42,145 nucleotides of DNA, from the sequence record NC_073322.1, one strand, 5' to 3'. Shown here piece after piece: positions 1 to 41,336 of the stretch. The translations under genes were made by a program, and so were the position numbers. Source of the stretch: Escherichia phage vB_EcoS-Ro145c2YLVW. The notes under the pieces are model-generated. The model made no database searches and was not told the origin of the DNA. It saw nothing but the letters and a program-made list of their open reading frames with translations. Positions within the stretch are counted from its first letter, which is position 1. Each line of letters starts with the position of its first letter.

Positions 1-203
1 AGTGGATTAAGTGTAGTGAGCAGATGCCACCTAAAATGACCGGAGTTCTGGTTGCTACTGAGTTCTGGCATAAAGGTGACTGGCGTATGAAGTGGGCTAC
101 TTATGTGCCTGGGCATCCGGATGCTGACGATGGGTGGCTGATTCCTGGTGCTTCCTGGAAGCCATCACACTGGATGCCGTTACCAGAGCCACCGGAAGTG
201 TGA
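1..203 (+). CDS. hypothetical protein, 3' fragment (gene starts upstream of window)
   Basis: Frame open from window edge to TGA at 201-203; in-frame ATG at 24 could also give a 59-aa product. Confidence 0.3.
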   Translation, partial: WIKCSEQMPPKMTGVLVATEFWHKGDWRMKWATYVPGHPDADDGWLIPGASWKPSHWMPLPEPPEV

Positions 204-327
204 TGTTCAATAGTTTGGGATTTTACTGAGTGACTTACGCTGCTACACAGCAGCGTATCATTTTTCTCATTTTTGTTCTATTTCACCAAACGCAACAATC
301 GACGAGACTATTGCAGGAGATGCAACA

Positions 328-504
328 ATGAAAACGTTCACAGAGAAACTTATGGAGTGCGTTGCGAAGCGAGATGCTGCGGCTCGTAGTTACCGTAAAT
401 GCGCCAACTGCGGCAGCGGGCAGGTACAGTTAATCTCGTACCTGGGCGACTCGGTTACGCATAAGTGTCGAAAGTGCTGTCACGTGAATGCGCAACCCCA
501 ATAA
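328..504 (+). CDS. small Cys-rich zinc-ribbon protein (58 aa)
   Basis: ATG 328 with GCAGGAG Shine-Dalgarno 8 nt upstream; CxxC...CxxCC motifs; below ORF-track length cutoff. Confidence 0.4.
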   Translation: MKTFTEKLMECVAKRDAAARSYRKCANCGSGQVQLISYLGDSVTHKCRKCCHVNAQPQ

Positions 505-511
505 AATTTAC

Positions 512-540
512 TTGCACACTTGAATAGAATAGGCTACTAT
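512..540 (+). promoter_or_regulatory. sigma70-like promoter, conserved class A cassette (TTGCAC-17 nt-TACTAT)
   Basis: -35 TTGCAC, 17-nt spacer, -10 TACTAT; about 30 nt near-identical to cassettes at 10598-10626(-), 20344-20372(-), 41428-41456(+). Confidence 0.5.
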
Positions 541-570
541 TCATTTACACGAACGAGAGGAGAGACAGAG

Positions 571-720
571 ATGGTTACTTTGATGGTTATGGAGTTTGAA
601 AACAGCGCAGCAACTTACCGCGAGATTACTATGGTGCAGGCGTATCACCTGGCCTCAAACGGCAACTTCTACAAGGCTCAAATCATCAATGAGTTTGGGG
701 TAATTGACTATGAATTTTAA
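571..720 (+). CDS. hypothetical small protein (49 aa)
   Basis: Track ORF 520..720 starts at TTG inside the promoter; trimmed to first ATG (571) preceded by GAGGAGAGA. Confidence 0.45.
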   Translation: MVTLMVMEFENSAATYREITMVQAYHLASNGNFYKAQIINEFGVIDYEF

Positions 721-979
721 CAGTTACACCGTGACTGTTGATTTTGAGGGGCTGGAGTTGCCCCTCCCTAACAACTACCGGTACATAACTCGAGACCGTT
801 TCGGGTTTATCCAGGGGTGGCGTAACAAACCAACAGACACTGAGTTCGGGATGTCAGGAGGGGAAGAGTTGCCGATTACTTTTGGGCATCAGAGTAGCAA
901 CGAAGAACTTAAAACGGTGATTCGTAAGTATCGCCGCCGTAACACCGGGCTTATCGCAATAACAGGCGCTGCTGAATAA
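710..979 (+). CDS. hypothetical protein
   Basis: Track ORF 704..979 trimmed to ATG 710; overlaps upstream gene end (coupled). Confidence 0.5.
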   Translation: MNFNSYTVTVDFEGLELPLPNNYRYITRDRFGFIQGWRNKPTDTEFGMSGGEELPITFGHQSSNEELKTVIRKYRRRNTGLIAITGAAE

Positions 980-998
980 GCTAGAGGAGAGACAGAAG

Positions 999-1109
999 AT
1001 GAAAGATTATAGCGAAGTAACTTTAGGTGAGTTGCAGGACGAGTACGAAGATACGCTGTACCCGTTCATCTGCGACGGAGATTACAACGGCGTCTATAAC
1101 GGGGAGTGA
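999..1109 (+). CDS. hypothetical small protein (36 aa)
   Basis: ATG 999 preceded by AGAGGAGAGACAGAAG leader resembling the one at 571; stop overlaps next gene start. Confidence 0.3.
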   Translation: MKDYSEVTLGELQDEYEDTLYPFICDGDYNGVYNGE

Positions 1110-1114
1110 AGAAT

Positions 1115-1477
1115 ATGAGTAACAAAAACGAAGTATTCGAGTACCTGATTGACCAACTACGGCAACAGGTAAACAGCAATCAGTGCGAAGACCTGGCGCA
1201 CGAGGTGCAGTCACTTAAGAATCAGTTACGCGATGCGTCGGCGCTGGTGGCTGAGTTACAGAGTGAGTTGCAGCATCAGATTGACCTGGCGGCGGGTGTG
1301 TATAGATGGTCTACCGCATATTTCGACGAGAAAGGTAAAGTCACCAGGGTGGAGCGCGGGGTTAAGAGCGAGCAATCAGGTTGCCGTAAAGAAGATACAC
1401 AGGAATGCGGGCATGATTGGTACTTTTACGATAAAGGCACATCGATGATGTGCAAGAAATGCGGGCTGAAGAAATGA
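1115..1477 (+). CDS. hypothetical protein, coiled-coil with C-terminal Cys cluster
   Basis: Track ORF 1106..1477 trimmed to ATG 1115; C-terminal C...C...CxxC. Confidence 0.5.
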   Translation: MSNKNEVFEYLIDQLRQQVNSNQCEDLAHEVQSLKNQLRDASALVAELQSELQHQIDLAAGVYRWSTAYFDEKGKVTRVERGVKSEQSGCRKEDTQECGHDWYFYDKGTSMMCKKCGLKK

Positions 1478-1677
1478 CCAGCATCTTATTTATCTGGGTA
1501 TTATACGCGGGCCAGATGCAACTAGCGGCATCAGAAACGTTTTACTCGATGGAGGCGTGCCAGTCAGCGGCACGCGCCGCAGAGAACGCGCACTTCCTGT
1601 TTCAGGGAGACAAGCCCAACGATTCAGAGGTGCGCGCTATCTGCTCACCTAAGCGACTTGGTAAACAGGAGAAGTAA
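1474..1677 (+). CDS. hypothetical protein with hydrophobic N-terminus
   Basis: Track ORF 1450..1677; ATG 1474 overlaps stop of upstream gene; start choice uncertain. Confidence 0.4.
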   Translation: MTSILFIWVLYAGQMQLAASETFYSMEACQSAARAAENAHFLFQGDKPNDSEVRAICSPKRLGKQEK

Positions 1678-1679
1678 TT

Positions 1680-1862
1680 ATGGTACAGAGATATAGCTAC
1701 AACCCGATGTTCGGGTTTACTCCTGATGTTGAAGGCGGGTTAGTGCTTTACGAAGATTACGTGAAACTCGAAGCCGAGTTACAGAAATACAAAGACCAGT
1801 TCCCTGATTACGTCGAGTGCGCTAATTGTGGGTCGGTTACACATGTGGAAGGGGTGGAGTGA
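1680..1862 (+). CDS. hypothetical protein with CxxC motif
   Basis: ATG 1680 preceded by AGGAGAAG; 60 aa. Confidence 0.5.
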   Translation: MVQRYSYNPMFGFTPDVEGGLVLYEDYVKLEAELQKYKDQFPDYVECANCGSVTHVEGVE

Positions 1863-2155
1863 TGTCGTTAGCAACTGACATCCTGAAACGAAGCGGCCTC
1901 GCGCCGCTGTCACCAAGAGCGAACACCCAGATATACAAGCGCCGCCGTAACGCGCTGTTCCCTGAGATTCAGGCCAGACTCAAAGCTGTCCGCGCCTGTG
2001 GATTCCAGAACGGGAAGGCCGTGAATCTCGGTGAGTTTAAAACAAAGGAACGAGCGGCAATCGCTAATCGGCTATTTAATTACTGGAAATCGCTCGGGTA
2101 TGAAGATATTCCGACGAAACCACAGAGACGACAATACATCTGGAGACACAAATAA
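1862..2155 (+). CDS. hypothetical protein
   Basis: Track ORF 1826..2155 trimmed to ATG 1862 overlapping upstream stop. Confidence 0.5.
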   Translation: MSLATDILKRSGLAPLSPRANTQIYKRRRNALFPEIQARLKAVRACGFQNGKAVNLGEFKTKERAAIANRLFNYWKSLGYEDIPTKPQRRQYIWRHK

Positions 2156-2230
2156 ACCGTTATTAAGATAATTCCTAACCGTGCTATCCTCCAGTTACTG
2201 CATACTTAATACGCACCTGGAGGATTCATC

Positions 2231-2539
2231 TTGGATAAACTTACTGAAACAGTGACAGGCTGGCTTCTGGCTGCCGCACTCGCCGGAGGGGTAATCGGAC
2301 TACGACAACATAAGTCCGCTATTTCCGGCCCTATTGACGGATTCTGCTTTATTGCAACTGGCTTCACCTGCGCCGTATTTGGTGCGCCCCTCGCCGCTCA
2401 ATGGTTTGGAATCACGGGCGAGCGCGAAATCGCTGGCCTTGGCTTCATTATCGCTATTCTCTGGATGCCTATCTATTCCCGTCTCTCCGGTATCGTCGCT
2501 GGAGAATACATCGCACGTCGAGGAGGCACAGATGAATGA
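2231..2539 (+). CDS. putative holin
   Basis: 102-aa protein with hydrophobic helices directly upstream of endolysin; TTG start 2231 after GGAGGA. Confidence 0.6.
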   Translation: MDKLTETVTGWLLAAALAGGVIGLRQHKSAISGPIDGFCFIATGFTCAVFGAPLAAQWFGITGEREIAGLGFIIAILWMPIYSRLSGIVAGEYIARRGGTDE

Positions 2540-2804
2540 GTTATTCTGGTTCGGCGGTATGCTGGCAATCGGAGGCACATCGCTGTTTAATGTGTATCAC
2601 CCCAGCGTGGACGACGGGCTATTCGGTCGGGTGCTCTATATCCTGACCGCTATTGTCTGCGCCGCCGGATGTATCCACCTGTTACAGGGCAGTATGTCAC
2701 CTACGCTGCCTGAGACATTAATCACATTAGTTGCGCTGCGTCAGATTCGTCATGCGTGGCTGTCGTACGGAGGACATAAGCGTGTCTCGAAACATTTCAG
2801 ATAA
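2532..2804 (+). CDS. second lysis-cassette membrane protein (holin or antiholin partner)
   Basis: ATG 2532 after GAGGAGG; 91 aa with two hydrophobic segments; overlaps holin end and endolysin start. Confidence 0.5.
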   Translation: MNELFWFGGMLAIGGTSLFNVYHPSVDDGLFGRVLYILTAIVCAAGCIHLLQGSMSPTLPETLITLVALRQIRHAWLSYGGHKRVSKHFR

Positions 2805-3270
2805 TGGGCTGCATTTCACCGCCGCGTTCGAGGGGTTCCGCGGGGCCGCCTACCGCGCTACGCCGAACGAGAAGTACCTGACGATAGGCTATGGGCACTA
2901 CGGGCCGGACGTAACACCTGGCAAGACCATCACCCCCGGGCAAGGCCTCCTGCTACTTAATCGTGATATGGCTAAGGCTGCAGCTGCGGTTGATGCTGCA
3001 GCGCACCATTCGCTGACACAGGCACAGTTCGACGCTGTGTGTGACCTGGTCTATAATGCAGGTGCAGGTGTGATTGCAGCTACCACCGGCACGGGTAAGG
3101 CGCTGCGCTCGGGGGATATTGCAACGCTGCGGGCTAAGCTGGCGCTGTTTATCAACCAGAACGGCAAGCCGTTACTCGGCCTGCGGCGCCGTACTGCCGG
3201 ACGTCTTGCACTGTTCGACGGTAAACTGTGGCAGGAGGCCGAGGCTATTGGGCGCGCGGTGAAAGGTTGA
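2782..3270 (+). CDS. endolysin, phage lysozyme (GH24-like)
   Basis: FEGFRGAAY...TIGYGH matches the lysozyme catalytic Glu / TIGxGH signature; GTG start 2782 after GGAGGA. Confidence 0.8.
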   Translation: MSRNISDNGLHFTAAFEGFRGAAYRATPNEKYLTIGYGHYGPDVTPGKTITPGQGLLLLNRDMAKAAAAVDAAAHHSLTQAQFDAVCDLVYNAGAGVIAATTGTGKALRSGDIATLRAKLALFINQNGKPLLGLRRRTAGRLALFDGKLWQEAEAIGRAVKG

Positions 3271-3336
3271 CACCTGAGACTAATCCGACGATACTTAAAT
3301 CACCTCCTGTTTCATCCCTCTGCTCTCCAGTTTTAT

Positions 3337-3367
3337 CCCGGCCCTGACCCAGCCGGGATTTTTTTTT
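3337..3367 (+). terminator. rho-independent terminator
   Basis: CCCGGC-9 nt loop-GCCGGG stem followed by A(T)9 run, immediately after endolysin. Confidence 0.7.
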
Positions 3368-3389
3368 ATCTATTTTCTGTAATGACTAG

Positions 3390-3418
3390 TTGACTATTAC
3401 CTACGACCCTATTATATT
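3390..3418 (+). promoter_or_regulatory. sigma70-like promoter (TTGACT-17 nt-TATATT)
   Basis: Consensus-like hexamers at correct spacing upstream of small-ORF operon; spacer shares CTATTATA core with class B promoters. Confidence 0.45.
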
Positions 3419-3451
3419 TACTTCATCGACAACGAGAACGGAGTAGAGAAG

Positions 3452-3529
3452 ATGAGTAACTTCCATAATGAGCATGTGATGCAGTTCTATCGTCATAATC
3501 TGAAAACTAAAGGAGTGTTTGGGAAATGA
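3452..3529 (+). CDS. tiny ORF (25 aa)
   Basis: ATG after GGAGTAGAGAAG; stop overlaps next ATG (translational coupling). Confidence 0.3.
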
Positions 3530-3675
3530 AAATCACAGATATCGAAGCATTCAAAGACGCACAACTGATGGCACGCATCGCCGTCAATAACCTGAGCAGC
3601 AATATCCCGGCTGACGCGTTCTGGGCCGCCGCGATGCGGGTACTGAAAGCAGCTTATGTAGGAGAGAAGAAATGA
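3526..3675 (+). CDS. tiny ORF (49 aa)
   Basis: ATG overlapping upstream stop; AGGAG upstream; stop overlaps next ATG. Confidence 0.3.
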
Positions 3676-3842
3676 GCGAAGAAATTAGAGAACGAAGTAA
3701 AGTACTTCTACCGTTGTGGGTGGGATATAAAGTCGGCCACACCCCGTTCCCAACACGTGAGGAACTGATGAAACGTAACAGTTTCCCGGGGCCGGACAAG
3801 AACAAGTATCTCAATCGCATGTGGGGAGAGCGTAAAGAATGA
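3672..3842 (+). CDS. tiny ORF (56 aa)
   Basis: ATGA overlap with both neighbours; chains into track ORF 3839..4084. Confidence 0.3.
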   Translation: MSEEIRERSKVLLPLWVGYKVGHTPFPTREELMKRNSFPGPDKNKYLNRMWGERKE

Positions 3843-4084
3843 CTGACCGTGAATACGAAAAGATGATGGTAGAGGCGGTTAACGGCGGCGTAGACATCGG
3901 TCACGTGATGCACGTCCTGAATACTAAAATCGCGGTAGCGGAGCAAATGGTTGAGTCGCTTTATGAGACCCGCCGCGAACTGATTAACCGCTTCAACCTG
4001 AACAAGTGCGAACATGAGTTCGACTACAATCCGAAGGATATGTGCGGGCAGTGTATTAAATGCGGGGTACAGCGTCATGCCTAA
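3839..4084 (+). CDS. hypothetical protein with C-terminal zinc-ribbon (CxxC-x-CxxC)
   Basis: Track ORF; ATG start; CGQCIKCG motif. Confidence 0.5.
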   Translation: MTDREYEKMMVEAVNGGVDIGHVMHVLNTKIAVAEQMVESLYETRRELINRFNLNKCEHEFDYNPKDMCGQCIKCGVQRHA

Positions 4085-4355
4085 AATCACAATCGCATCA
4101 CTCGAGCGCCGTATTATGGTGCTTGAGTCAGAGAAACAGACGTTAGGCGGGCAACTGTCAATTAACGGTGAGTTTCAACTGGAGGTGTTTAAGCAGTTAC
4201 TCACATTAACGGCGGACATAGAAAATATTGTCGCCCTTCTAGAGTCAGGGGAATGGGGCGAGCATTGCGCAGAATCGGAGTTAGGCCAACGGCTTGAGTC
4301 GGAGATTACTAACATGCTTAGTGGTCTTGGGTGGTCGCCAGATGAAAGCACCTGA
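4077..4355 (+). CDS. hypothetical protein
   Basis: Track ORF 4014..4355 trimmed to ATG 4077 overlapping upstream stop. Confidence 0.5.
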   Translation: MPKITIASLERRIMVLESEKQTLGGQLSINGEFQLEVFKQLLTLTADIENIVALLESGEWGEHCAESELGQRLESEITNMLSGLGWSPDEST

Positions 4356-4524
4356 GCCAGTAGTTATCGATGGCGTCCTGTGGAAACCTTACTCGGTTAA
4401 CCACATCGACGCCGACGGGAAGAAGTTTAGCTTCTACATTTTTGCAATTAGCCGTGAGCACGCCGCTTGTGTGGTTGACGATATACGAGAAACGGCGTGG
4501 CTTGGTGATGAGATAGTGGGGTGA
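4342..4524 (+). CDS. hypothetical protein
   Basis: Track ORF 4294..4524 trimmed to ATG 4342. Confidence 0.45.
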   Translation: MKAPEPVVIDGVLWKPYSVNHIDADGKKFSFYIFAISREHAACVVDDIRETAWLGDEIVG

Positions 4525-4528
4525 GAGT

Positions 4529-4612
4529 ATGAGTCTTGGAGTGGTTATTGGTCTGGTCGGTCTTAGTTACTTCATTGGGTTATTGGTTGGATTTCTGTGG
4601 GGTAGATACTAA
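4529..4612 (+). CDS. small hydrophobic peptide (27 aa)
   Basis: ATG after GAGAG; single predicted membrane helix; stop overlaps ATG 4612. Confidence 0.3.
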   Translation: MSLGVVIGLVGLSYFIGLLVGFLWGRY

Positions 4613-4893
4613 TGGCACGTACCGTTGCCGCGAGATTCACTGATATTGAATCTGCGATAGAAGAAGCTGTTTATAATAAATTCTGCAACCCCTCTGCTAC
4701 GCACAACTACGGAGTTATTGTTAAATACGGCAAGTTTGAAATTAGGAGAGTTCGCACCGGTCGCCCGCACGAGTTTTTATGGACAACAGAAAGCCTAGTC
4801 CCGCGGTGCCACATTTACACAAGCGGCGCACATACGATTTTTGTAGACCTTAACAAGAAAGATATTACCGTCACTAAAGGAGAGACAAATTGA
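4612..4893 (+). CDS. hypothetical protein
   Basis: Track ORF, ATG start. Confidence 0.5.
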   Translation: MARTVAARFTDIESAIEEAVYNKFCNPSATHNYGVIVKYGKFEIRRVRTGRPHEFLWTTESLVPRCHIYTSGAHTIFVDLNKKDITVTKGETN

Positions 4894-5126
4894 TTACCAG
4901 CATTCCTAAACTGATTGAAGAGTACGGAAGTATGTCGGAGACCTGCCGACAAACCGGTATCTGCGAAATGACGATTGCCAAGTACAGCAAAGACGTGAAC
5001 TGCGAGCGCCACGTAATTTATAACAACCGTCTGATGACGCACGTTAAGACAAGCCCGGTGTTATTCACGCGCCGCGGTATCACTAAAACTGAGCAACGTA
5101 TTGCTAAAGAGGAGAGTGGGGGATGA
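4890..5126 (+). CDS. hypothetical protein, possible HTH
   Basis: TTG start after AAAGGAGAGACAA leader; coupled to neighbours. Confidence 0.45.
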   Translation: MITSIPKLIEEYGSMSETCRQTGICEMTIAKYSKDVNCERHVIYNNRLMTHVKTSPVLFTRRGITKTEQRIAKEESGG

Positions 5127-5305
5127 TTGATATTTTGAGGGCTACAAATGCTGCCGGTGACCTGGTGTTTTGGTTGGCCTTTCTCGGTGTGCTGATAAAA
5201 CAACCGACTTTGTTTAACGTTATTCCTCGCTATCTGTGGTGGCCTATGTTTTTAGGCATGGGAGTATCAGGAGTGGCTGGTATCCTTTTGTGGTTTTTCA
5301 AATGA
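5123..5305 (+). CDS. small membrane protein
   Basis: 60 aa, two hydrophobic segments; last gene before terminator. Confidence 0.5.
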   Translation: MIDILRATNAAGDLVFWLAFLGVLIKQPTLFNVIPRYLWWPMFLGMGVSGVAGILLWFFK

Positions 5306-5407
5306 GGCTACTAATCATCCCGAACGCCTGGGCTATCGCTGTAGCTAACGACCATTACGGCGGCGACGGTAAAAGAGCACCACGACACTGCCTATATAAC
5401 TGATACA

Positions 5408-5432
5408 AGCCCTCTACGGAGGGCTTTCTTTT
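5408..5432 (+). terminator. rho-independent terminator
   Basis: AGCCCTC-TACG-GAGGGCT hairpin followed by TTCTTTT. Confidence 0.65.
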
Positions 5433-5459
5433 ACATCCCGCCTAATCCCCTTATATAAT
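5431..5459 (+). promoter_or_regulatory. sigma70-like promoter (TTACAT-17 nt-TATAAT) for packaging/head operon
   Basis: Near-consensus hexamers directly after terminator and upstream of terminase small subunit. Confidence 0.5.
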
Positions 5460-5524
5460 CCCTTTAGACGCGTAGGGCGCGTCTGGTGCGCTCTGATGGT
5501 CAGACGCATATGCAAGGGGATTAT

Positions 5525-6070
5525 ATGAAGCTGAAACTCAAGCAGCCATCGCCAGAGGTGGTGCAAGCTGCGCATGAAGAAGCTGTTAGCGCGAACCGTC
5601 GCCGTAAACGGCCGCGCGGTAAACAGAGCCTTTATCAATCGTCCCGTAATTCCGCTGCGTTGTGGGACCCGGACTATTGTGACGAATTGATTCGTTTCTT
5701 CGACCGCACGTCATGGGAACTTGTGCCTACGTCCAAAGGTGACGAACGCCCGCTGATTCAGGATAAGCCACCGTCACTGGCCCGCTTTGCCTTACACATC
5801 GGCGTCACTATCCCGATTATTAAGCTGTGGCTGCGTGAGATTCCCGCATTTGCAGAAGCCTATGAAACTGCACAGGCGCTGGAAGAGGCGTACTTCACTG
5901 AGACAGGCGCGGCGGGCATCTCCGCTACGTTTGCCGCTGCGAAGCTGGGCCTTAGCAAAGAGAAACCGGTTGAATCCACCGAAAAAACGGCGCCGACTGA
6001 GATTATTTTCAGTGTTGCAGAGCCTGTAGGTAAAATCGTAACAACGAATATGGGCGAGGTAGAGGAATGA
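5525..6070 (+). CDS. terminase small subunit (putative)
   Basis: Immediately upstream of and overlapping terminase large subunit; basic N-terminus and HTH-like segment; track ORF trimmed to ATG 5525. Confidence 0.6.
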   Translation: MKLKLKQPSPEVVQAAHEEAVSANRRRKRPRGKQSLYQSSRNSAALWDPDYCDELIRFFDRTSWELVPTSKGDERPLIQDKPPSLARFALHIGVTIPIIKLWLREIPAFAEAYETAQALEEAYFTETGAAGISATFAAAKLGLSKEKPVESTEKTAPTEIIFSVAEPVGKIVTTNMGEVEE

Positions 6071-7317
6071 GTATTCAGCTATCCGCCCCTCAGGCGCTGT
6101 TTCTTAATTGCGATAACAAATACAAAGCCTACGTCGGCGGCTTCGGCAGCGGCAAAACATTTGTTGGCTGCCTAGACCTGCTTACGTTTATGCTTAAGCA
6201 TCCCGGTACACGCCTTGGCTACTTTGGACCAACATATCCGGCTATCCGAGACATCTTCTATCCGACATTCGAGGAAGCGGCTAACCTGCTAGGCCTCGAT
6301 GTGCTTGTTAAATCTGGGGACAAAGAGGTAGTGGTTACCCGTGGTAAGACAGTGCTCGGGACAGTTATCTGCCGGTCGATGGATAACCCAGGCTCGATAG
6401 TCGGCTTCAAAATCGCGGCTGCGGTCGTGGATGAGCTCGATGTATTGAGTCGCGAGAAAGCTGAGCTGGCGTGGAACAAAATCGTAGCCCGTATGCGTCT
6501 GGTCATCCCGGGCGTAATCAACCACATCTCCGTAACCACGACACCGGAAGGATTCAAGTTCGTCTACGCCAAGTTCAAAGAGAACCCGACGCCGAGCTAC
6601 TCTATGGTGCAGGCATCAACTCATGAGAACGCCAGATTCCTGCCGCCGGATTATATTAGCTCGCTGACAGAGACTTACCCGGCGCAGTTGATTAACGCAT
6701 ATCTTAACGGTGAGTTCGTCAACCTGACATCCGGCAGCGTGTATTACGCATACGACCGCCGTAAGCATCGCAGCAAAGAGACAATTCAGCCTGGCGACAC
6801 GCTGTACATCGGGCAGGACTTCAACGTTACGAAGAATGCCAGCGCCGTGTATGTGCAACGTAAAGACGGCTGGCACGCGGTAGCGGAACTGAAAGGACTG
6901 TTCGATACGCCGGACACCGTGCGCGTAATTACTGAGAAGTGGAAGTCACAAGGCCACCGCATCGTCGTTTACCCTGACGCCAGCGGCAAGAACCGCAAGA
7001 CCAACTCGGCGTCAATCTCTGATATTGCATTACTCCAGCAGGCCGGGTTCGATGTGCGGGCTAAATCAGCCAACCCGCCGGTTAAGGACCGTGTTTTAGC
7101 CGTGAATACCGCGCTGGAAAAAGGTAAGCTGTGGGTTAACGACCACTTATGCCCCGAGATAGCCAAGACGCTGGAGCAACAGGCATATGACGATAACGGA
7201 GAGCCAGCTAAAGACGGCATCATTGACCATATGGCAGATGCGCTCGGCTATCCTGTAGTTTACGAGATGCCAGTGGTTAAACCAGTAATCAACATCCCGG
7301 TGACTTTCGCACTTTAA
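6067..7317 (+). CDS. terminase large subunit
   Basis: Walker A GGFGSGKT near N-terminus, about 416 aa, followed by portal gene. Confidence 0.9.
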   Translation: MSIQLSAPQALFLNCDNKYKAYVGGFGSGKTFVGCLDLLTFMLKHPGTRLGYFGPTYPAIRDIFYPTFEEAANLLGLDVLVKSGDKEVVVTRGKTVLGTVICRSMDNPGSIVGFKIAAAVVDELDVLSREKAELAWNKIVARMRLVIPGVINHISVTTTPEGFKFVYAKFKENPTPSYSMVQASTHENARFLPPDYISSLTETYPAQLINAYLNGEFVNLTSGSVYYAYDRRKHRSKETIQPGDTLYIGQDFNVTKNASAVYVQRKDGWHAVAELKGLFDTPDTVRVITEKWKSQGHRIVVYPDASGKNRKTNSASISDIALLQQAGFDVRAKSANPPVKDRVLAVNTALEKGKLWVNDHLCPEIAKTLEQQAYDDNGEPAKDGIIDHMADALGYPVVYEMPVVKPVINIPVTFAL

Positions 7318-7329
7318 GAGGATTATTCA

Positions 7330-8805
7330 ATGTTAACTATGAACGGTCAGAATCAGGGTGTTAAGACGAAACACCAGGAATGGCTGCATCACTTCGATAA
7401 ATGGCAGAAGGTACGTCACGCACTGGAAGGCGACCTTATTCGCTATCTGCGCAACGTCGGGAAGAACGAGCCTGACCCGACCTACGCGGCACAGCGCCAG
7501 GAAGAATATGAGAACGGCGCTATCTGCTACAACTTCACTAAACGTACCCTGGCGGGGATGGTCGGCAGTGTCATGCGCAAAGACCCTGAGCAGATTATCC
7601 CCCCTGAACTTGAGTACCTGTTACGCAATGCTGATGGTTCCGGTGTCGGGCTGTGGCAGCACGCACAGGATACTTTGATGGAGATTGACTCGGTGGGCCG
7701 TGGCGGGCTGCTGGTGGACGCCCCTGAGACAGCTGCGGCAACGGCAGCAGAACAGAACGCAGGATTATTAAACCCGGTCATTGCATTCTACACCACGGAG
7801 AACATCATCAACTGGCGACTGACACGCGTCGGTTCAGTCAACCGTGTGACTATGGTCGTGCTGCGTGAGGTATGGGAATACTCAGAACCGGGGGCAGAGT
7901 TTGAAACCAAGTTCGGTGAACAGTTCCGCGTCCTCGACCTGATTGATGGTCGTTACCGCCAACGCATCTATCGCTTCGATGTCGAAGGCGGCGCTCAGGA
8001 CGAAGTAATCGAAATATTCCCGGAACTCGGCGAACAGTTACGTGGCAAAATCCCGTTCACGTTTATTGGCGCAAGCAACAACGACGCCACTATCGACGAT
8101 GCGCCTTTGCTGCCGTTGGCCGAGCTAAACATAGGACACTTCAGAAATTCGGCTGATGTGGAAGAGGCCAGCTTTATAGTAGGCCAGCCCACTCTGTTCA
8201 TCGCCCCCGGCGATAATATGAGCATGGAGCAATGGAAAGAAGCCAACCCCCACGGCATCCGCATGGGGTCGCGTTCTGGTCACAACATTGGCTACGGCGG
8301 CACTGCGTTTCTGGTTCAGGCGGCGGAAACTAACCTCGCCAAACAGAACATGCTGGATAAAGAGAATCAGGCCATCCAGATTGGCGCACAGCTTATTACC
8401 CCGACGCAACAAATCACCGCTGAATCGGCCCGCCTGCAACGAGGTGCGGATACGTCCGTTATGGCGACAATCGCACGCAACGTAAGCATGGCGTACACCG
8501 ATGCGCTACGCTGGGTAGCTGCGATGCTTGGGCTTCGTGAGGATACTGAGATTGAGTTCAAGCTGAATATGGAGTTCTTCCTGCAACCGATGACCGCCCA
8601 GGACCGTGCTCAGTGGATGGCCGACATCAACGCCGGTCTGTTACCAGCTACCGCTTACTACGCGGCATTGCGCAAGGCGGGTGTAACTGACTGGACAGAT
8701 GAGGATATTCAGAACGCTATTGAAGACGCGCCGCTGCCGGTTTTTACACAGACTACCGGGGAAATTCCGGCTACAGCACAGCAGGATGAAGAGGCGCAGC
8801 AATGA
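7330..8805 (+). CDS. portal protein
   Basis: 491-aa protein directly after terminase large subunit; AAGAGGA SD before ATG 7330. Confidence 0.8.
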   Translation: MLTMNGQNQGVKTKHQEWLHHFDKWQKVRHALEGDLIRYLRNVGKNEPDPTYAAQRQEEYENGAICYNFTKRTLAGMVGSVMRKDPEQIIPPELEYLLRNADGSGVGLWQHAQDTLMEIDSVGRGGLLVDAPETAAATAAEQNAGLLNPVIAFYTTENIINWRLTRVGSVNRVTMVVLREVWEYSEPGAEFETKFGEQFRVLDLIDGRYRQRIYRFDVEGGAQDEVIEIFPELGEQLRGKIPFTFIGASNNDATIDDAPLLPLAELNIGHFRNSADVEEASFIVGQPTLFIAPGDNMSMEQWKEANPHGIRMGSRSGHNIGYGGTAFLVQAAETNLAKQNMLDKENQAIQIGAQLITPTQQITAESARLQRGADTSVMATIARNVSMAYTDALRWVAAMLGLREDTEIEFKLNMEFFLQPMTAQDRAQWMADINAGLLPATAYYAALRKAGVTDWTDEDIQNAIEDAPLPVFTQTTGEIPATAQQDEEAQQ

Positions 8806-9857
8806 GCAAGCTATCGCAGATGATTATCAGCCATCAAATATGGCTACAGAGACTAGGAACGCAAACAGCGTCGCTGTCCGTCCCCTTCGTCAATAAGATG
8901 CGTGCGGAGGTGCGCGACGCGGTGCTTAAGTTCGGTGACGACGCGCGCACAGTGAAGAAGCTGAATAAAATGCTGACAAGCCTGGATGGCGTGCTGGATG
9001 ACGTCACCGGCGATTGGAAGAGCACGATAGAGAAGAGCCTTCGCGAGATTGCCGACTACGAGAATAAGTGGTTTATCCATACGCTGGAGGCCAACACGAA
9101 GCCGAAAACGTTTATTACCGGACCTACGGCAGAAGAACTGTGGTCGCGTATCAAGTTCGCACCACTGGCGATGGGTAACTCACCTGTCGGCGTTATGGAC
9201 CTGATGTCAGGCTGGGCGCAGACCGAGCGTAACCGCCTTGTGCGCGGCGTACAGACCGGCTTTGTGCAGGGGCAGACAACCCACCAAATTGTCTCTGCCG
9301 TTGTGGGCCCCGGTGGCCTGGCCGATATATCTGAGCGCAACGTAATGACGGTAGTCCGAACAGCAGTGAGTCACGTATCGAACACGGCGCGAGACTCTGT
9401 GTACGACAGCAACAGCGATATTGTGAGCAAATATCAGTGGGTATCTACGCTCGACAGCCGTACTTCGACTGTATGTAAGTCGCGCGACGGCCAGAAATAT
9501 GACATAGGTAGAGGGCCGATGCCCCCCGCCCATCCGAACTGCCGCAGTACCACTATCCCGGTAATCGAAGATGACTTCCTGGACTTTCTCGACGAGGGGG
9601 CTAAGCGGGCGGCTAAGGGTGCGGACGGCGGTACTCAGGTAAGCGCAGACACCACCTATTACGAGTTCCTGAAGCAACAACCGGCATGGTTTCAGGACCA
9701 GGCGCTCGGCCCTGTTCGCGGTAAGATTTTCCGCGGCAGCGGTATATCGCCGGAAGAGTTTCGCGTAATATCTGTAGATGGTTTCGGGAATCCGCTCACG
9801 CTTAAGCAGATGGCGGAACTCGATAAACGTGTTGCTGATTATCTGAAAGGGGAATAA
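8802..9857 (+). CDS. head morphogenesis / minor head protein
   Basis: Position after portal with overlapping start; size 351 aa. Confidence 0.65.
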   Translation: MSKLSQMIISHQIWLQRLGTQTASLSVPFVNKMRAEVRDAVLKFGDDARTVKKLNKMLTSLDGVLDDVTGDWKSTIEKSLREIADYENKWFIHTLEANTKPKTFITGPTAEELWSRIKFAPLAMGNSPVGVMDLMSGWAQTERNRLVRGVQTGFVQGQTTHQIVSAVVGPGGLADISERNVMTVVRTAVSHVSNTARDSVYDSNSDIVSKYQWVSTLDSRTSTVCKSRDGQKYDIGRGPMPPAHPNCRSTTIPVIEDDFLDFLDEGAKRAAKGADGGTQVSADTTYYEFLKQQPAWFQDQALGPVRGKIFRGSGISPEEFRVISVDGFGNPLTLKQMAELDKRVADYLKGE

Positions 9858-10318
9858 TGATGGGCTTTTTCAAAATTACTGATGTACCGTCGCGCCGCGT
9901 AGTCCAGTTTGCCCGTGTGTCTGGCTCTGGCGAGAACGTGGTGTTTATTGATGATGAAAGTGAACTGGGTACTCCTGTAGACGATATGCCGTTTGCCGAC
10001 AAGACCGGTATTGCGCTACCAGCGGCGGGTATGCTTTACGAGATTCCGTATCTGGCTGATGCAGGTGATGTTTATTTCTCGGTACAACCTAAAGATGCAG
10101 AACTGACAGACGGCAGCGCGACTATCACTGTCGAAGTTAAGGCGGGTAAAGCCCCCTATGCGCTGGCATGGTACAAAGACGGCAAGGAAGTGGTAAATGC
10201 CCCGGAAGAGGCTTTGTCACTGACGGTTAACGCCGCGGGTGAATACTTCGTTAAAGTTACTGATGCCAATGGAGTGGAGGCGGTTAGCAAAGCGGCGAAG
10301 GTTACTAAGCCAGAATGA
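9857..10318 (+). CDS. structural protein with C-terminal Ig-like domain
   Basis: C-terminal segment PYALAWYKDGKEV...EYFVKVTDANG resembles Ig-like fold; homologous to domain in 13649..13999. Confidence 0.5.
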   Translation: MMGFFKITDVPSRRVVQFARVSGSGENVVFIDDESELGTPVDDMPFADKTGIALPAAGMLYEIPYLADAGDVYFSVQPKDAELTDGSATITVEVKAGKAPYALAWYKDGKEVVNAPEEALSLTVNAAGEYFVKVTDANGVEAVSKAAKVTKPE

Positions 10319-10321
10319 TAA

Positions 10322-10348
10322 AAGGCCCCATTATGGGGCCTTAGTTTT
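10322..10348. terminator. bidirectional hairpin terminator
   Basis: AAGGCCCCA-TTA-TGGGGCCTT stem-loop followed by AGTTTT; sits between convergent genes. Confidence 0.6.
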
Positions 10349-10571
10349 AAACTTCCACGTCTATCACCAAATCATCAGGCATGGTTATGACTATTTTATC
10401 GTTTTCATAGAACGGGCTAAGAGGCTCATTTTCAGGCTGCAAACGTAAAGTTAGCTTTTTATCACCAAAATAATCTATGTAACGAACCCAGTACCACTCG
10501 TCGAATACCTGTACCTTTTCTCCGGGGCGTACATCTCTAGCCTTCTTTTGATTCGTAAATCTAATCGGCAT
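10347..10571 (-). CDS. hypothetical protein (74 aa), antisense moron
   Basis: ATG with AGGAGG SD; driven by class A promoter at 10598-10626; ends at the bidirectional terminator. Confidence 0.55.
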   Translation of the reverse strand: MPIRFTNQKKARDVRPGEKVQVFDEWYWVRYIDYFGDKKLTLRLQPENEPLSPFYENDKIVITMPDDLVIDVEV

Positions 10572-10597
10572 AAATACCTCCTGTTTAAGTTAACTGA

Positions 10598-10626
10598 ATA
10601 GTACCCTACTATATTGGGGTGTGCAA
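10598..10626 (-). promoter_or_regulatory. sigma70-like promoter, class A cassette
   Basis: Minus strand TTGCAC-17 nt-TACTAT; near-identical to cassettes at 512, 20344, 41428. Confidence 0.5.
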
Positions 10627-10692
10627 ACTATTTGTTTATGTATTCCAGTTATTCCGCTCAATTGTAAATGTTGGAATAAACTATTCGAATAG

Positions 10693-10721
10693 TTGACTTT
10701 TCACTGAAAATGTGCTAAGCT
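10693..10721 (+). promoter_or_regulatory. promoter with extended -10 (TTGACT-17 nt-TGcTAAGCT)
   Basis: -35 TTGACT 10693-10698, TG motif then TAAGCT 10716-10721; preceded by GGAATA-type repeats. Confidence 0.4.
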
Positions 10722-10728
10722 CCACCTG

Positions 10729-10929
10729 AGCTTGTGAAGTATGAACAAGCGACCGCGGCGCGGGCAGGTAACGGAGCGGGACGTAAGTCCTGAGTGTAGT
10801 TACGCTGACGCGTTCGGAAGGGCCATACTCTATTGCTTGTGTAAAAAGTAACGGGTTTACTGAGATTACGCCGTTTCTATGTTTAAATGATAAGGCCTAG
10901 CGCCCCGCTTTATGGCGGGGCTTTACTTA
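10729..10929 (+). ncRNA. candidate small RNA or structured leader upstream of spanins
   Basis: About 200 nt between a promoter and a GC-rich hairpin (GCCCCGC-TTTATG-GCGGGGC plus T-rich tail); no ORF over 10 codons; internal hairpin GCTTGT-N9-ACAAGC. Confidence 0.3.
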
Positions 10930-10945
10930 TCGAGAAAGGGGAAAC

Positions 10946-11332
10946 ATGAATCTTAAAGCAACTGTCATGGCAGGAGCATGTTTCATCATCCTGGTTTACG
11001 CACACGGCATCTACCAGTATCGCAGCGGCTGGAACGAGGGCCGGGCGAATCTCATTTCGCAGCAACAGCAGAAAGCACAAGCTGAGTTAGCGAAGAAAAC
11101 ACAACGGCAGCAGCAGGATGAATCAAAGGCCGCGGCCGCTGACAACGAAGGCAAGACGAAATCAGAGGTGATTACCCGTGAAGTCGTTAAGTACATTAAA
11201 ACGCCTGGTCGCAGCGTGTGCACTTTCGACCCTGAGCGCGTGCAGCTCAAGTCCCGCGCCGTCGCAAACGCCAATTCCATCCCCGGATACGACGATGATG
11301 CAGCCGCCGTGCAAACTGGCACCGCCAAGTAG
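10946..11332 (+). CDS. i-spanin (Rz-like)
   Basis: N-terminal membrane helix then charged Q/K/E-rich coiled-coil region; o-spanin-like gene embedded in +1 frame. Confidence 0.6.
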   Translation: MNLKATVMAGACFIILVYAHGIYQYRSGWNEGRANLISQQQQKAQAELAKKTQRQQQDESKAAAADNEGKTKSEVITREVVKYIKTPGRSVCTFDPERVQLKSRAVANANSIPGYDDDAAAVQTGTAK

Positions 11333-11441
11333 CGACGCTGACGAGGATTTGGCTGTCGACGTTCAGAACGCCGAATGCGCACGGCAATTGCGCCTGAAAG
11401 TGTTCATGTTGCAGGATTACGTGAGGAATATTCTGGAATAG
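11178..11441 (+). CDS. o-spanin (Rz1-like lipoprotein)
   Basis: Signal peptide with lipobox LSAC, proline-rich mature region; starts inside Rz-like gene and extends past its stop. Confidence 0.6.
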   Translation: MKSLSTLKRLVAACALSTLSACSSSPAPSQTPIPSPDTTMMQPPCKLAPPSSDADEDLAVDVQNAECARQLRLKVFMLQDYVRNILE

Positions 11442-11475
11442 TTGCCTTGCATGTTGGAATAATTTATTCTTGACA
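11420..11475 (+). promoter_or_regulatory. operator-like GGAATA repeat region with -35-like TTGACA
   Basis: GAATATTC and GAATAATTTATTC palindromes plus 12-mer ATGTTGGAATAA shared with 10664-10675; TTGACA at 11470 with no clear -10. Confidence 0.3.
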
Positions 11476-11523
11476 TGTAAATCCGGGTGGCCCGGGTTCC
11501 AACGTCCAGGGGACATACTGACT

Positions 11524-12225
11524 ATGAATCGTTTTTTACGTTATCCGTTCCAGGAAGAAGCTGGGGCAGAAGATAAATCCGCCGGCGGTGACGCGCCGAA
11601 AATGTTCACCGCTGAAGAAGTTCAGGCGCTGATTGAGAAAGAAGTTGCCGGGCTTAAGGCCAATCAGGAAGCATTGCTGGCGGAGAAGAAAGAAGCTGCC
11701 CGTAAAGCAAGAGAGGCTGAAGAAGAACGGCAGCGCGCACACCAGGAGGCATTAAAAGCCGCCGGTAAGATGGACGAGTTCGAAAAGACGATTCGTAGCC
11801 AGTATGACCCGGTGTTAGCAGAGAAAGATGGTCGCATCACCAAAATGGCTGAGCGCATCCTCGGCAGCGAACGTAAAGCGGTGTTAGGCTCTTTCGCTGG
11901 TGACTTTATTACCCCGGAAGCAGTAGACATTCTTGCGTCGTTCGTTATGACTGGGTTCGAAGGCGATGATGTTGTTACTAAGTTTGTTGGCGCAGACGGT
12001 AACGTAATCACGACTGACCCGGAACAGTTCCGCAAATACCTGCGCGAACACAAAGCGTTTTCGCATTTGATTAAAGCAAATGCAGCTTCCGGCGGCGGGG
12101 CTTCCGGTGGCAAAGGCGGCGGGGCCGCACCAGCGTTTAAAGACATGAGTGAAGCGGAGCGTTTAGCTCTGTATAAATCGAACCCTGCCGAATTTGAACG
12201 GCAACTTAAAGCCCTGAGGAAATAA
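11524..12225 (+). CDS. scaffolding protein (putative)
   Basis: Coiled-coil, Ala/Glu/Lys-rich 234-aa protein directly upstream of major capsid gene. Confidence 0.55.
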   Translation: MNRFLRYPFQEEAGAEDKSAGGDAPKMFTAEEVQALIEKEVAGLKANQEALLAEKKEAARKAREAEEERQRAHQEALKAAGKMDEFEKTIRSQYDPVLAEKDGRITKMAERILGSERKAVLGSFAGDFITPEAVDILASFVMTGFEGDDVVTKFVGADGNVITTDPEQFRKYLREHKAFSHLIKANAASGGGASGGKGGGAAPAFKDMSEAERLALYKSNPAEFERQLKALRK

Positions 12226-12227
12226 TA

Positions 12228-13277
12228 ATGGCAATTACCACTATCGGCGATATCGTAACTGGCAACATCCCGGTCCTGGCGTCTTATATGACCGAGGATC
12301 CGGTAGAAAAAACCGCGTTCTTCCAGTCCGGTATTCTGACCCCGACTCCGTACGCTGCCGAGATTGCTCGTGGCCCGTCCAATATCGCTAATATTCCTTT
12401 CTGGAAAGCGATTGATACCTCTATCGAGCCTAACTACTCGAACGATGTGTATCAGGACATCGCTACCCCGCGTAATGTGCAAACCGGTGAGATGATGGCC
12501 CGCGTTGCGTACCTGAACGAAGGTTTTGGTCAGGCGGACCTGACTGTTGAACTTACCAGCCAGAATCCGCTGCAATCCGTGGCGTCCCGTCTGGATAACT
12601 TCTGGCAGCGCCAGGCGCAACGCCGTCTGATTGCTACCGCGCTCGGCCTGTACAACGACAACGTAGCCGCTACCGATGCTTACCACGAGCAGAATGACAT
12701 GGTAATCGACGTGTCCGCTACTCTGGGCTTCGACTCCGGCGCGTTCATCGACGCTACCCAGACTATGGGTGATGCTCTGATGGGCAACGGCGGTGAAGTG
12801 TTGGGTGCTATCGCGATGCACAGCTTCGTTTATGCGCAGGCGCGTAAGCAGCAGCTTATCGACTTCATTCGTGATGCTGACAACAACACCATGTTTGCCA
12901 CCTACCAGGGCTACCGTGTGATTGTTGACGACAGCATGACCGTAGTCGGTACCGGCCCGAGCCGTAAGTTCATCTCCATCATCTTTGGCAATGGCGCTAT
13001 CGGTTACGGCGAAGGCTCCCCGGCCAATCCGCTGGCCTACGAGCGCGAAGAATCCCGCGGCAACGGCGGTGGCGTTGAAACCCTGTGGACCCGTAAGACC
13101 TGGTTGCTGCATCCACTGGGCTACAGCTTCACCAGCACAGTAATCACCGGTAACGGCACCGAGACTGTCGCACGTTCTGCTTCCTGGCAGGACCTGGCGA
13201 ACGCCTCCAACTGGAACCGTGTGGTTGAGCGTAAGCATGTACCGATTGCCTTCCTGGTAACTGGTGTCGGGGCTTAA
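12228..13277 (+). CDS. major capsid protein
   Basis: 349-aa protein following scaffold, followed by strong terminator; position and size typical. Confidence 0.8.
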   Translation: MAITTIGDIVTGNIPVLASYMTEDPVEKTAFFQSGILTPTPYAAEIARGPSNIANIPFWKAIDTSIEPNYSNDVYQDIATPRNVQTGEMMARVAYLNEGFGQADLTVELTSQNPLQSVASRLDNFWQRQAQRRLIATALGLYNDNVAATDAYHEQNDMVIDVSATLGFDSGAFIDATQTMGDALMGNGGEVLGAIAMHSFVYAQARKQQLIDFIRDADNNTMFATYQGYRVIVDDSMTVVGTGPSRKFISIIFGNGAIGYGEGSPANPLAYEREESRGNGGGVETLWTRKTWLLHPLGYSFTSTVITGNGTETVARSASWQDLANASNWNRVVERKHVPIAFLVTGVGA

Positions 13278-13293
13278 GGTTAAGATATAATCG

Positions 13294-24900: not shown

Positions 24901-25217
24901 TATTACACTACACCCGTAACGAAGACGGTACTTTCGACCGCAAACGGTACAACGTACCGCCGATGGAATACGTCGTTGCTAACATCCCTGACGGGGTGCC
25001 GGTACGTATTTACCGGGGCGAGATTGGCGAGGATACGGAAGTAACGGAAGATTTCGAAGCGCTGAAAGAAGACGACGTATTCCATATTATCGAAGGTGCT
25101 GGTGGCGGTGGCGGTGTTCTCGGAAAACTGCTTGACCCATTGGGTGTGCTTAAGTTTATCACTAAACTGATTTCCCCGTCGCAGACAACGCCTAAAACTA
25201 GTGTAGCTAACCAGTAA
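24891..25217 (+). CDS. tail assembly protein (lambda I-like position)
   Basis: Small protein with poly-Gly linker; C-terminal 17 codons repeated at N-terminus of next gene. Confidence 0.5.
   Translation: MALILHYTRNEDGTFDRKRYNVPPMEYVVANIPDGVPVRIYRGEIGEDTEVTEDFEALKEDDVFHIIEGAGGGGGVLGKLLDPLGVLKFITKLISPSQTTPKTSVANQ
25164..25214 (+). repeat. 51-bp direct repeat, copy 1
   Basis: AAACTGATTTCCCCGTCGCAGACAACGCCTAAAACTAGTGTAGCTAACCAG; 49/51 identical to 25278-25328. Confidence 0.8.
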
Positions 25218-25259
25218 TCCGGAGGGGGTTGTGTAGGGAAAGAGCGTAAACCTTGGGGG

Positions 25260-41028: not shown

Positions 41029-41057
41029 AGTATACATTGCGAATAATGGGAAATCAA
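41029..41057 (-). promoter_or_regulatory. sigma70-like promoter (TTGATT-17 nt-TATACT) for replication operon
   Basis: Hexamers at correct spacing about 30 nt upstream of ATG 40996. Confidence 0.4.
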
Positions 41058-41336
41058 ACATAATCTCACCTATTGACATTACGGAAATCTTCGTTTAAGG
41101 TGCTTCTATATCTTAGTTACTTTGATTCCTGTTCACCTTGTAAAACCCGCCGAAAACGAGCGCACAACGCGAAGTGTTAGGCGGCAGTTTACTGAACATT
41201 CGAATTATCGTAACTTCCCTTCCTTAGTATCTCAGTTGCCCTGGGCAAGCTCTATTCTCATCGGCAGCATATCTCTTAAGTAACTGATTTTTTTAATGTG
41301 CTGTAGATTCGCAACCGTAAAAATGTAACGATTATT

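Follow-up and report, generated by a model that had tools for sequence, protein, structure and literature searches.

A predicted spanin pair in the head module of a Kagunavirus, apart from its holin and endolysin genes

Phage P2 carries its overlapped spanin genes, lysB and lysC, within a lysis cassette beside the holin and endolysin genes, and phage lambda has an RNA hairpin (sdi) at the start of its holin gene. In phage T7, the spanin genes 18.5 and 18.7 are unlinked from the holin and endolysin genes. The spanins of lambda, T4 and T7 act after the holin and endolysin and are not known to have a role in lysis timing. Here we analyse the lysis genes within a 42,145-nucleotide (nt) stretch of DNA from Escherichia phage vB_EcoS-Ro145c2YLVW (NC_073322.1; the whole stretch is referred to as the window), in which a holin/endolysin cassette (2231-3270) and an overlapping pair of predicted inner-membrane and outer-membrane spanins (i-spanin and o-spanin, 10946-11441) occupy two separate loci. 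Our analysis points strongly to an ordinary three-step Gram-negative lysis system, with the position of the spanin genes reflecting synteny inherited within Guernseyvirinae and Dhillonvirus and no special circuit.

The closest described systems are those of the 'Jersey' family of overlapped spanins, to which Kongari et al. 2018 assigned K1G, K1H, K1ind1-3, SETP3, HK578, Jersey and others (PMC6139136), and in which they describe an overlap of 155 bp, with Cys45 and Cys67 constant. The same study places the T4 spanin genes apart from the T4 holin and endolysin genes. Separation of the spanins from the holin and endolysin has been stated in print for Ro145clw (PMC6627115), and the same split layout for phages Schulenberg (PMC6763661) and fBC-Eco01 (PMC9825357). 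As our GenBank comparison record we used Escherichia phage vB_EcoS-Ro145clw (MG852086.2; Kagunavirus, Guernseyvirinae), which matches window positions 2000-12300 at ~100% identity by megablast; window coordinates equal record coordinates minus 30102 for positions 1-11929.

The spanin pair and its place in the genome

The predicted lysis genes are as follows, with the supporting matches given after each description.

2231-2539, plus strand: holin-family membrane protein 1, 102 amino acids (aa), TTG start; PHROG 2359 (holin), E=1.2e-29, and hydrophobic segments
2532-2804, plus strand: holin-family membrane protein 2, 90 aa, with a basic C-terminal tail; PHROG 2508 (holin), E=5.8e-34, and hydropathy
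2782-3270, plus strand: soluble GH24 endolysin, 162 aa, GTG start; PF00959, PHROG 33703 and 7, PDB 8HP8
10946-11332, plus strand: i-spanin, 128 aa, with an N-terminal transmembrane segment, a helical periplasmic stalk and Cys92; PHROG 2536 ('Rz-like spanin'), E=9.5e-57
11178-11441, plus strand: o-spanin, 87 aa, GTG start after AGAGG, with lipobox TLSA-C22, Ser at +2, a Pro-rich linker, Cys45 and Cys67; PROSITE PS51257, PHROG 5672 and 1267

An initial annotation made from the sequence had proposed a holin, a second membrane protein and a GH24-type endolysin at 2231-3270, and an overlapping Rz/Rz1-like pair at 10946-11441 in the head-gene region, about 7.7 kb away. These assignments are borne out by the matches above (PHROG 2359 and 2508 with PF00959 for the cassette; PHROG 2536, 5672 and 1267 for the pair), and the distance from the endolysin stop to the i-spanin start measures 7,675 nt. 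The pair lies between a Hoc-like decoration gene and the scaffold gene (ATG at 11524). As also proposed, the o-spanin gene begins inside the i-spanin gene in the +1 frame and runs past its stop: its start lies 232 nt into the i-spanin gene, the two genes share 155 nt, and a further 109 nt follow the i-spanin stop.

Both products have the signals expected of their predicted locations. Hydropathy places the transmembrane segment of the i-spanin at approximately residues 3-23, and a single-sequence AlphaFold model contains helices at residues 3-64 and 69-79, with a predicted local distance difference test (pLDDT) score of 75-91 over residues 1-60 and low confidence in the C-terminal third. The o-spanin matches PHROG 5672 at E=1e-29 and PHROG 1267 at E=9e-21. 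The initial annotation had made its reading of the open reading frame (ORF) at 11178 depend on a valid lipobox, and formal prediction finds one: the product, MKSLSTLKRLVAACALSTLSA-C22-S, satisfies the PS51257 rule through K2, an uncharged h-region and T18-L19-S20-A21-C22, with Ser rather than Asp at +2. When this rule was applied to all start codons of all ORFs of 40 aa or more in the whole window, the o-spanin was the sole ORF of an annotated gene to pass. The pair therefore combines the features by which two-component spanins are recognized (Summer 2007, Kongari 2018), namely i-spanin topology, a lipoprotein, gene overlap and periplasmic cysteines, and on this basis would be expected to disrupt the outer membrane. 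Candidate disulfide cysteines, i-spanin Cys92 and o-spanin Cys45 and Cys67, are conserved among relatives.

Homologs of the i-spanin are found in 663 phage records. By tblastn, identity to Jerseyvirus and Kagunavirus members is 62-97%, with local similarity reaching Dhillonvirus. Among 57 related loci scanned for the pair, an automated scan found it in most, and the two overlapping frames are open in every locus for which a translation was printed (part of the set). Conservation is greatest in the C-terminal 35 aa of the o-spanin (83-89% identity), while its signal peptide diverges (36-50%), which is the pattern expected for a genuine secreted lipoprotein.

With the 'Jersey' family, the Ro145clw pair shares the 155-nt overlap, the 128- and 87-aa products, Cys45 and Cys67 in the o-spanin, Cys92 in the i-spanin and the place upstream of the scaffold gene. 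We see no difference of substance, and regard it as a further member whose o-spanin is truncated in GenBank. P2 LysB/LysC, the overlapped prototype, has the same gene architecture and predicted topology, with weak DUF2514, LysC and P2_Rz1 similarity that in each case falls below cut-off; the P2 lysis genes are clustered, whereas the spanin genes of Ro145clw lie 7.7 kb from its holin and endolysin genes. The S, R and Rz/Rz1 genes of lambda provide the same three predicted steps, and the sdi hairpin at the lambda holin start can be set against a Ro145clw hairpin over the Shine-Dalgarno (SD) sequence of a holin-like gene. Unlike those of Ro145clw, however, the lambda lysis genes are contiguous in one late transcript, and the pair shows no Rz/Rz1 sequence similarity, with no Pfam match to Rz or Rz1. 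T4 pseT.3/pseT.2 and T7 18.5/18.7 are precedents for unlinked spanins but represent different sequence families, and the T4 genes are 'separated' rather than overlapped.

The initial annotation had called separate control of the spanins unusual. This does not survive comparison with relatives. We inspected the annotation of 11 records for synteny, comprising MG852086.2 and 10 others (EF2-1, XY2, LSPA1, SETP3, demigod, ER11, phiEap-2, Shelanagig, Cornellvirus VSiA and Dhillonvirus TheodorHerzl). In all 11, which span Kagunavirus, Jerseyvirus, Cornellvirus, phiEap-2 and Dhillonvirus, the spanin pair lies immediately upstream of the scaffold and major capsid genes, and wherever whole-genome or long annotation tables were read, the holins and endolysin lie upstream of the terminase genes. 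The split layout is not novel, being already known for Ro145clw (for which it is published), its subfamily, T4 and T7. In Dhillonvirus the homologous spanin genes overlap the end of the minor-capsid gene and lack their own promoter and leader, so the need for separate control is not conserved.

Linkage to the lysis genes also varies within the family. Enterobacter phage Mulvp2 (OR508996.1) encodes at 2501-2773 an unannotated, distant i-spanin homolog (30% identity) directly after a lysozyme-like gene, which is likely a missed spanin in a canonical lysis cassette. The family thus occurs both linked to and unlinked from the lysozyme gene and, judging from these gene arrangements, appears to tolerate linked, unlinked, self-promoted and co-transcribed configurations.

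A variant of the pair itself was seen in one IMG/VR contig (UViG_3300045988_013393, 1501-2100), where a Kagunavirus-type leader precedes an i-spanin cut short to 118 aa. The o-spanin of this contig carries another signal peptide, with lipobox ITGC, and its gene overlaps the i-spanin gene by only 14 nt, the 'separated' architecture described for FSL SP-031. This arrangement suggests recombination within the spanin pair.

Predicted transcription units and the spanin leader

The following signals were predicted between the gene groups and upstream of the spanin genes.

3335-3368, plus strand: intrinsic terminator ending the holin/endolysin unit, with an 8-bp GC stem and U9; from sequence and fold
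3390-3418, plus strand: sigma-70-like promoter of the next unit, TTGACT-17-TATATT; from a sequence scan
5407-5426: terminator ahead of the terminase-portal-MuF-Hoc unit; prediction
5430-5459: promoter-like site ahead of the terminase-portal-MuF-Hoc unit; prediction
10322-10342, no strand assigned: bidirectional terminator-like hairpin between the Hoc-like gene and a minus-strand gene, ending the terminase-portal-MuF-Hoc unit; from the fold
10347-10571, minus strand: small gene, 74 aa, in a variable slot; PHROG 8705
10693-10721, plus strand: extended -10 promoter of the spanin leader, with TTGACT, a 17-nt spacer ending TGc, and TAAGCT; from sequence and conservation
10753-10817, plus strand: long irregular 65-nt RNA hairpin, followed by the invariant UUCGGAAGGGCC (10813-10824); from minimum free energy, centroid, covariation and covariance model R2
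10902-10921, plus strand: GC-rich hairpin 25 nt before the i-spanin ATG and abutting its SD, terminator-like here with the tail UUUACUUAU; the region's top terminator-like site

With the terminators (3335-3368, 5407-5426, 10322-10342) and promoter-like sites (3390-3418, 5430-5459, 10693-10721) lying between them, the gene groups fall into different predicted transcription units. The minus-strand gene is followed by a 374-nt non-coding region, which contains the spanin-leader promoter. In an alignment of nine relatives this promoter has the -35 element T[T/A/G]GACT, a 17-nt spacer ending TGn and the -10 element TAnnCT, and these three elements are kept in Kagunavirus, Jerseyvirus and phiEap-2. 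A strict consensus scan missed it because its -10 matches the consensus at only 3/6 positions.

Downstream of this promoter, a structured leader of ~215 nt (10728-10945, core 10753-10824) precedes the spanin genes, beginning with a small 5′ hairpin (10730-10750). We assessed its long hairpin by covariation in a MAFFT alignment of 42 distinct leaders. In this alignment, 92% of cells pair, as compared to 28-44% when the partners are slid by 1-3 columns, and nine pairs show compensatory changes. Covariance model R2 found one match per locus in 55/55 related loci, always upstream of the i-spanin gene, and no second copy elsewhere in the window or in the complete Shelanagig and TheodorHerzl genomes. 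It gave no significant match in Cornellvirus VSiA or Mulvp2; VSiA has a different leader with an analogous hairpin tipped GGCC-GUAA-GGCC. An alternative model, R1, built on the RNAalifold consensus, was not used, as misalignment of the Jerseyvirus rows by MAFFT left it with only 7 pairs. A scan of the leader against Rfam at E<=10 returned chance-level matches only, and a host origin was set aside, as a blastn search of 5,426 E. coli genomes returned nothing.

We also considered whether the leader might be a micro-protein gene. A 36-aa ORF (10741-10851) overlaps the leader hairpin, is open in most relatives and has 'AFGRA.LYC' in common with an annotated 39-aa ORF of Shelanagig. Against coding, 1-nt indels among close relatives alter its N-terminus and start, phages of >95% identity vary mostly at first codon positions, nonsynonymously, and the 12-nt core is invariant even at third positions while the paired columns covary. 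The region 10741-10851 is probably non-coding.

The hairpin directly ahead of the i-spanin gene is conserved in a different manner. Its stem occurs in four compensatory variants (CCCCGC/GCGGGG, CCCTGC/GCAGGG, CCCGGC/GCCGGG and CCCGAC/GTCGGG), but the U-tract that follows is moderate here (UUUACUUAU), poor in Jerseyvirus (CUUAGCGUAUAAAG) and missing from the equivalent hairpins of phiEap-2 and VSiA. Conservation of the stem and not the U-tract argues against a conserved attenuator role, and no conserved competing (antiterminator) helix was identified for 10902-10921. This pattern of variation better fits a role in RNA stability, processing or translation. The different promoter and possible attenuator that the initial annotation had assigned to the spanin genes stand as predictions: a promoter and a terminator-like hairpin are predicted there, and the U-tract that an attenuator would call for is not conserved in relatives.

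We tentatively suggest, as a possibility on the unlikely side, that the leader is an undescribed cis-acting regulatory RNA gating the late spanin-scaffold-capsid operon of Guernseyvirinae, whether through put-like antitermination, as an RNase III processing or stability element, or as a leader-terminated small RNA. The put-type RNA of HK022 is ~70 nt long, forms two stem-loops just past its promoter, binds the zinc-binding domain of the RNA polymerase beta′ subunit and suppresses downstream terminators. The Ro145clw leader is like it in gross layout only (a small 5′ hairpin, 1-2 nt, a long hairpin and a terminator-like hairpin downstream), which we treat as a lead. As a conserved structured element, the leader is a cheap candidate for transcript mapping in the study of late regulation in this widely used group of phages.

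Proposed order of lysis and competing explanations

By analogy with established holin-endolysin biology, the holin would accumulate in the inner membrane and set the time of lysis by forming holes, through which the cytoplasmic endolysin would leave to degrade the peptidoglycan. The i-spanin and o-spanin would join across the periplasm as disulfide-linked dimers, as do Rz and Rz1 of lambda, and the complex would build up in the envelope in the course of late expression and be restrained there by intact murein, so that the outer membrane is disrupted only after the endolysin has acted. Transcription of the spanin genes is predicted to be shared with the late scaffold and capsid genes, starting at the extended -10 promoter and running through the structured leader. 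Spanins that act after the endolysin need only exist before the holin triggers, and co-regulation with the holin is therefore unnecessary. The most economical reading is that the spanins are expressed late together with the capsid genes, at a position set by descent, and the sequence does not call for a timing circuit of their own. What is established here is the identity of the genes, their architecture and signals, and their conservation and synteny; we infer protein function, promoter use and timing. The biology that emerges is largely familiar, a textbook three-step lysis with unlinked spanin genes. For the engineering of these therapeutic and biocontrol phages, such as lysis-deficient or endolysin-swapped derivatives, it means that the genes for the outer-membrane step lie within the head module.

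Several observations weigh against an ordinary three-step system of this kind. Pfam and NCBIfam scores of the pair fall below cut-offs (DUF2514, 17.8 versus 26 bits; LysC, 13.3 versus 27; P2_Rz1, 15.6 versus 27). The lipobox of the Jerseyvirus o-spanin is atypical (L-N-G-C), while that of Ro145clw is canonical. We found in the literature no genetic test of any member of the Jersey spanin family. Promoters, terminators and timing are predictions, with no transcript mapping in the literature searched, and either of the two membrane proteins (102 aa or 90 aa) may be the holin. The sub-threshold matches to lambda and P2 spanin families, the lack of an experimental test in the family and the distance from the lysis genes would also be compatible with a pair that serves some other envelope function, for example lipoprotein-mediated superinfection exclusion or receptor masking, and that lies in the head module by chance. 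We regard this as very improbable. The pair carries the full two-component signature (a type II membrane protein with an outer-membrane lipoprotein encoded in the +1 frame, both having periplasmic Cys, and a Pro-rich linker in the o-spanin); nothing in the genome other than the o-spanin qualifies as a lipoprotein candidate, and the surroundings of the endolysin gene contain no further spanin candidate; Kongari et al. (PMC6139136) curated the family as spanins; and its distant homolog in Mulvp2 adjoins a lysozyme gene. A related doubt arises from the annotation of MG852086.2, whose two 'putative spanin' genes correspond to 10946-11332 and 11295-11441. Were 11295 the true start, the second product would have 48 aa and no signal peptide, and there would be no lipoprotein and no true overlapped o-spanin. 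The same truncated form is annotated in EF2-1, XY2, demigod and LSPA1, and the o-spanin is unannotated in ER11 and phiEap-2. We give this start almost no credence: no SD precedes it, whereas AGAGG precedes the GTG at 11178; the 39 codons upstream are open; a start codon at the same offset (+232; GTG, or ATG in SETP3-type phages) and the lipobox Cys are kept in relatives; and the genes annotated by CPT in Shelanagig and by RefSeq in SETP3 are of the long form, with the same geometry. Kongari et al. 2018 noted that o-spanin starts are often mis-called (PMC6139136). Comparative evidence thus identifies GTG 11178 as the conserved start and the GenBank start as truncated, and the o-spanins of MG852086.2 and several relatives should be re-annotated from the upstream GTG, as the form now annotated is without its lipoprotein signal.

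The remaining explanation, raised in the initial annotation, holds that the spanins are under gated control by their own promoter and the attenuator at 10902-10921 and so form a distinct lysis-timing circuit. In keeping with this, the spanin-leader promoter is conserved, the GC hairpin is maintained by compensatory changes, has a moderate U-tract in this phage and is the top terminator-like site of its region, and terminators part the spanin unit from the holin/endolysin unit. The comparative data point the other way: the U-tract is lost in Jerseyvirus (CUUAGCGUAUAAAG) and has no equivalent at the phiEap-2 and VSiA hairpins, no conserved antiterminator pairing was found for the leader, and the Dhillonvirus homologs do without a leader. 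No Q-type antiterminator appeared in a Pfam scan of ten small upstream ORFs, which returned only a NinH-like protein at 4890-5126. By the precedent of lambda, T4 and T7, where spanins act after holin and endolysin, no timing role would be expected of this pair. A dedicated timing circuit is consequently improbable in our assessment, somewhat less so than a non-spanin function, and we favor ordinary three-step lysis from two loci.

The holin/endolysin cassette and neighboring features

The genes of the cassette are labelled in MG852086.2 as 'holin-like class II' (2231-2539), 'holin-like class I' (2532-2804) and 'endolysin' (2782-3270). Neither holin-family protein matches a Pfam or NCBIfam model. 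Both proteins have the attributes of holins (small size, at least one transmembrane segment, a charged C-terminus and adjacency to the endolysin gene), from which hole formation is predicted; probably one is the holin and the other an antiholin or co-holin. An in-frame upstream extension (2406-2531) of the ORF starting at 2532 encodes a lipobox-like LFSGC. This extension shares its DNA with the first holin gene, read in a different frame, and probably arises by chance from hydrophobic coding sequence.

The endolysin scores 94.8 bits against Pfam PF00959 Phage_lysozyme (cut-off 22.3) and is near-identical to PDB 8HP8, 'Endolysin mtEC340M' (E=3e-95). Its start is best placed at GTG 2782, which has the SD GGAGGA upstream and agrees with GenBank, over TTG 2731. 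No hydrophobic N-terminal window indicative of a signal-anchor-release (SAR) or signal segment was found by hydropathy, so the protein is not a SAR endolysin but a canonical soluble endolysin dependent on a hole-forming holin. Within residues 17-34, an alignment to PDB 9KBS shows Arg-Ala (FEGFRGAAYRATPNEKYLT) where T4-type lysozymes keep Asp (E-x8-D-x5-T), together with a 2-residue insertion.

Immediately ahead of the cassette lies one further structured element.

2186-2225, plus strand: hairpin directly 5′ of the first holin-like gene, 9-10 bp, with the SD (GGAGG) in its 3′ arm and no U-tract

It folds at -19.5 kcal/mol (z=-2.85). The initial annotation had put the cassette behind a terminator; a hairpin is present there, and relatives have true terminators at this position, but in Ro145clw it has no U-tract. 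EF2-1 has the same hairpin before its first holin-family gene, and in Shelanagig and TheodorHerzl true terminators abut the start codon of the holin gene. Kagunavirus, Jerseyvirus and Dhillonvirus thus all have a strong SD-containing hairpin abutting the start of their first holin-family gene, and in the latter two it is a canonical terminator. Equivalent hairpins were located in two of the related genomes (L003, 39324-39360; L010, ~41033-41067), and a -10-like hexamer lies just upstream of the hairpin in each of these genomes and in Ro145clw. The element may represent a coupled arrangement of terminator, promoter and translational occlusion for the holin gene.

Half-sites of a repeated motif flank the leader-spanin module at two places.

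10643-10687, no strand assigned: TTATTCC / GGAATAA half-sites clustered immediately 5′ of the -35 element of the spanin-leader promoter; from sequence
11434-11475, no strand assigned: second cluster (TGGAATAG ... GGAATAATTTATTC-TTGACA) between the o-spanin stop and the scaffold gene; from sequence

The GGAATAA half-site is not enriched genome-wide (7 versus 5 expected), whereas the composite motif GGAATAAnnTATTC is (12 versus 2.9 expected). Exact copies of GGAATAAnnTATTC number two; they flank the leader-spanin module, each beside a TTGAC(T/A) hexamer, are invariant across genera and are accompanied by extra TTATTCC / TGGAATAG half-sites. The cluster at 11434-11475 is invariant across relatives, including phiEap-2, and has no recognizable -10. 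The GGAATAAnnTATTC sites may bind a regulator, serve as UP-like elements or mark a recombination boundary.

A tRNA scan found none, and Rfam returned 0 matches over the whole window at gathering thresholds. A 93-aa ORF with an ATG start (4612-4893, plus strand) falls within a stretch unannotated in GenBank (4356-4889) and has no family match above threshold. MG852086.2 is shorter than the window by 114 nt. The blastn segments break at window ~25214-25256, within a large tail gene (record ~13213-13285), where the subject coordinates overlap and TRF detected no tandem repeat; this suggests a duplicated segment or a different assembly version.

The slot between the Hoc-like gene and the spanin leader is variable in content. 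In this phage it holds the minus-strand gene at 10347-10571, and the slot was also located in three related loci (L004, L005 and L008). XY2 has there a gene labelled 'DNA polymerase III sliding clamp' and LSPA1 one for a 179-aa protein, while the slot is empty in SETP3, EF2-1 and ER11. The Dhillonvirus gene annotated as encoding a DNA polymerase III beta subunit instead follows the spanin genes.

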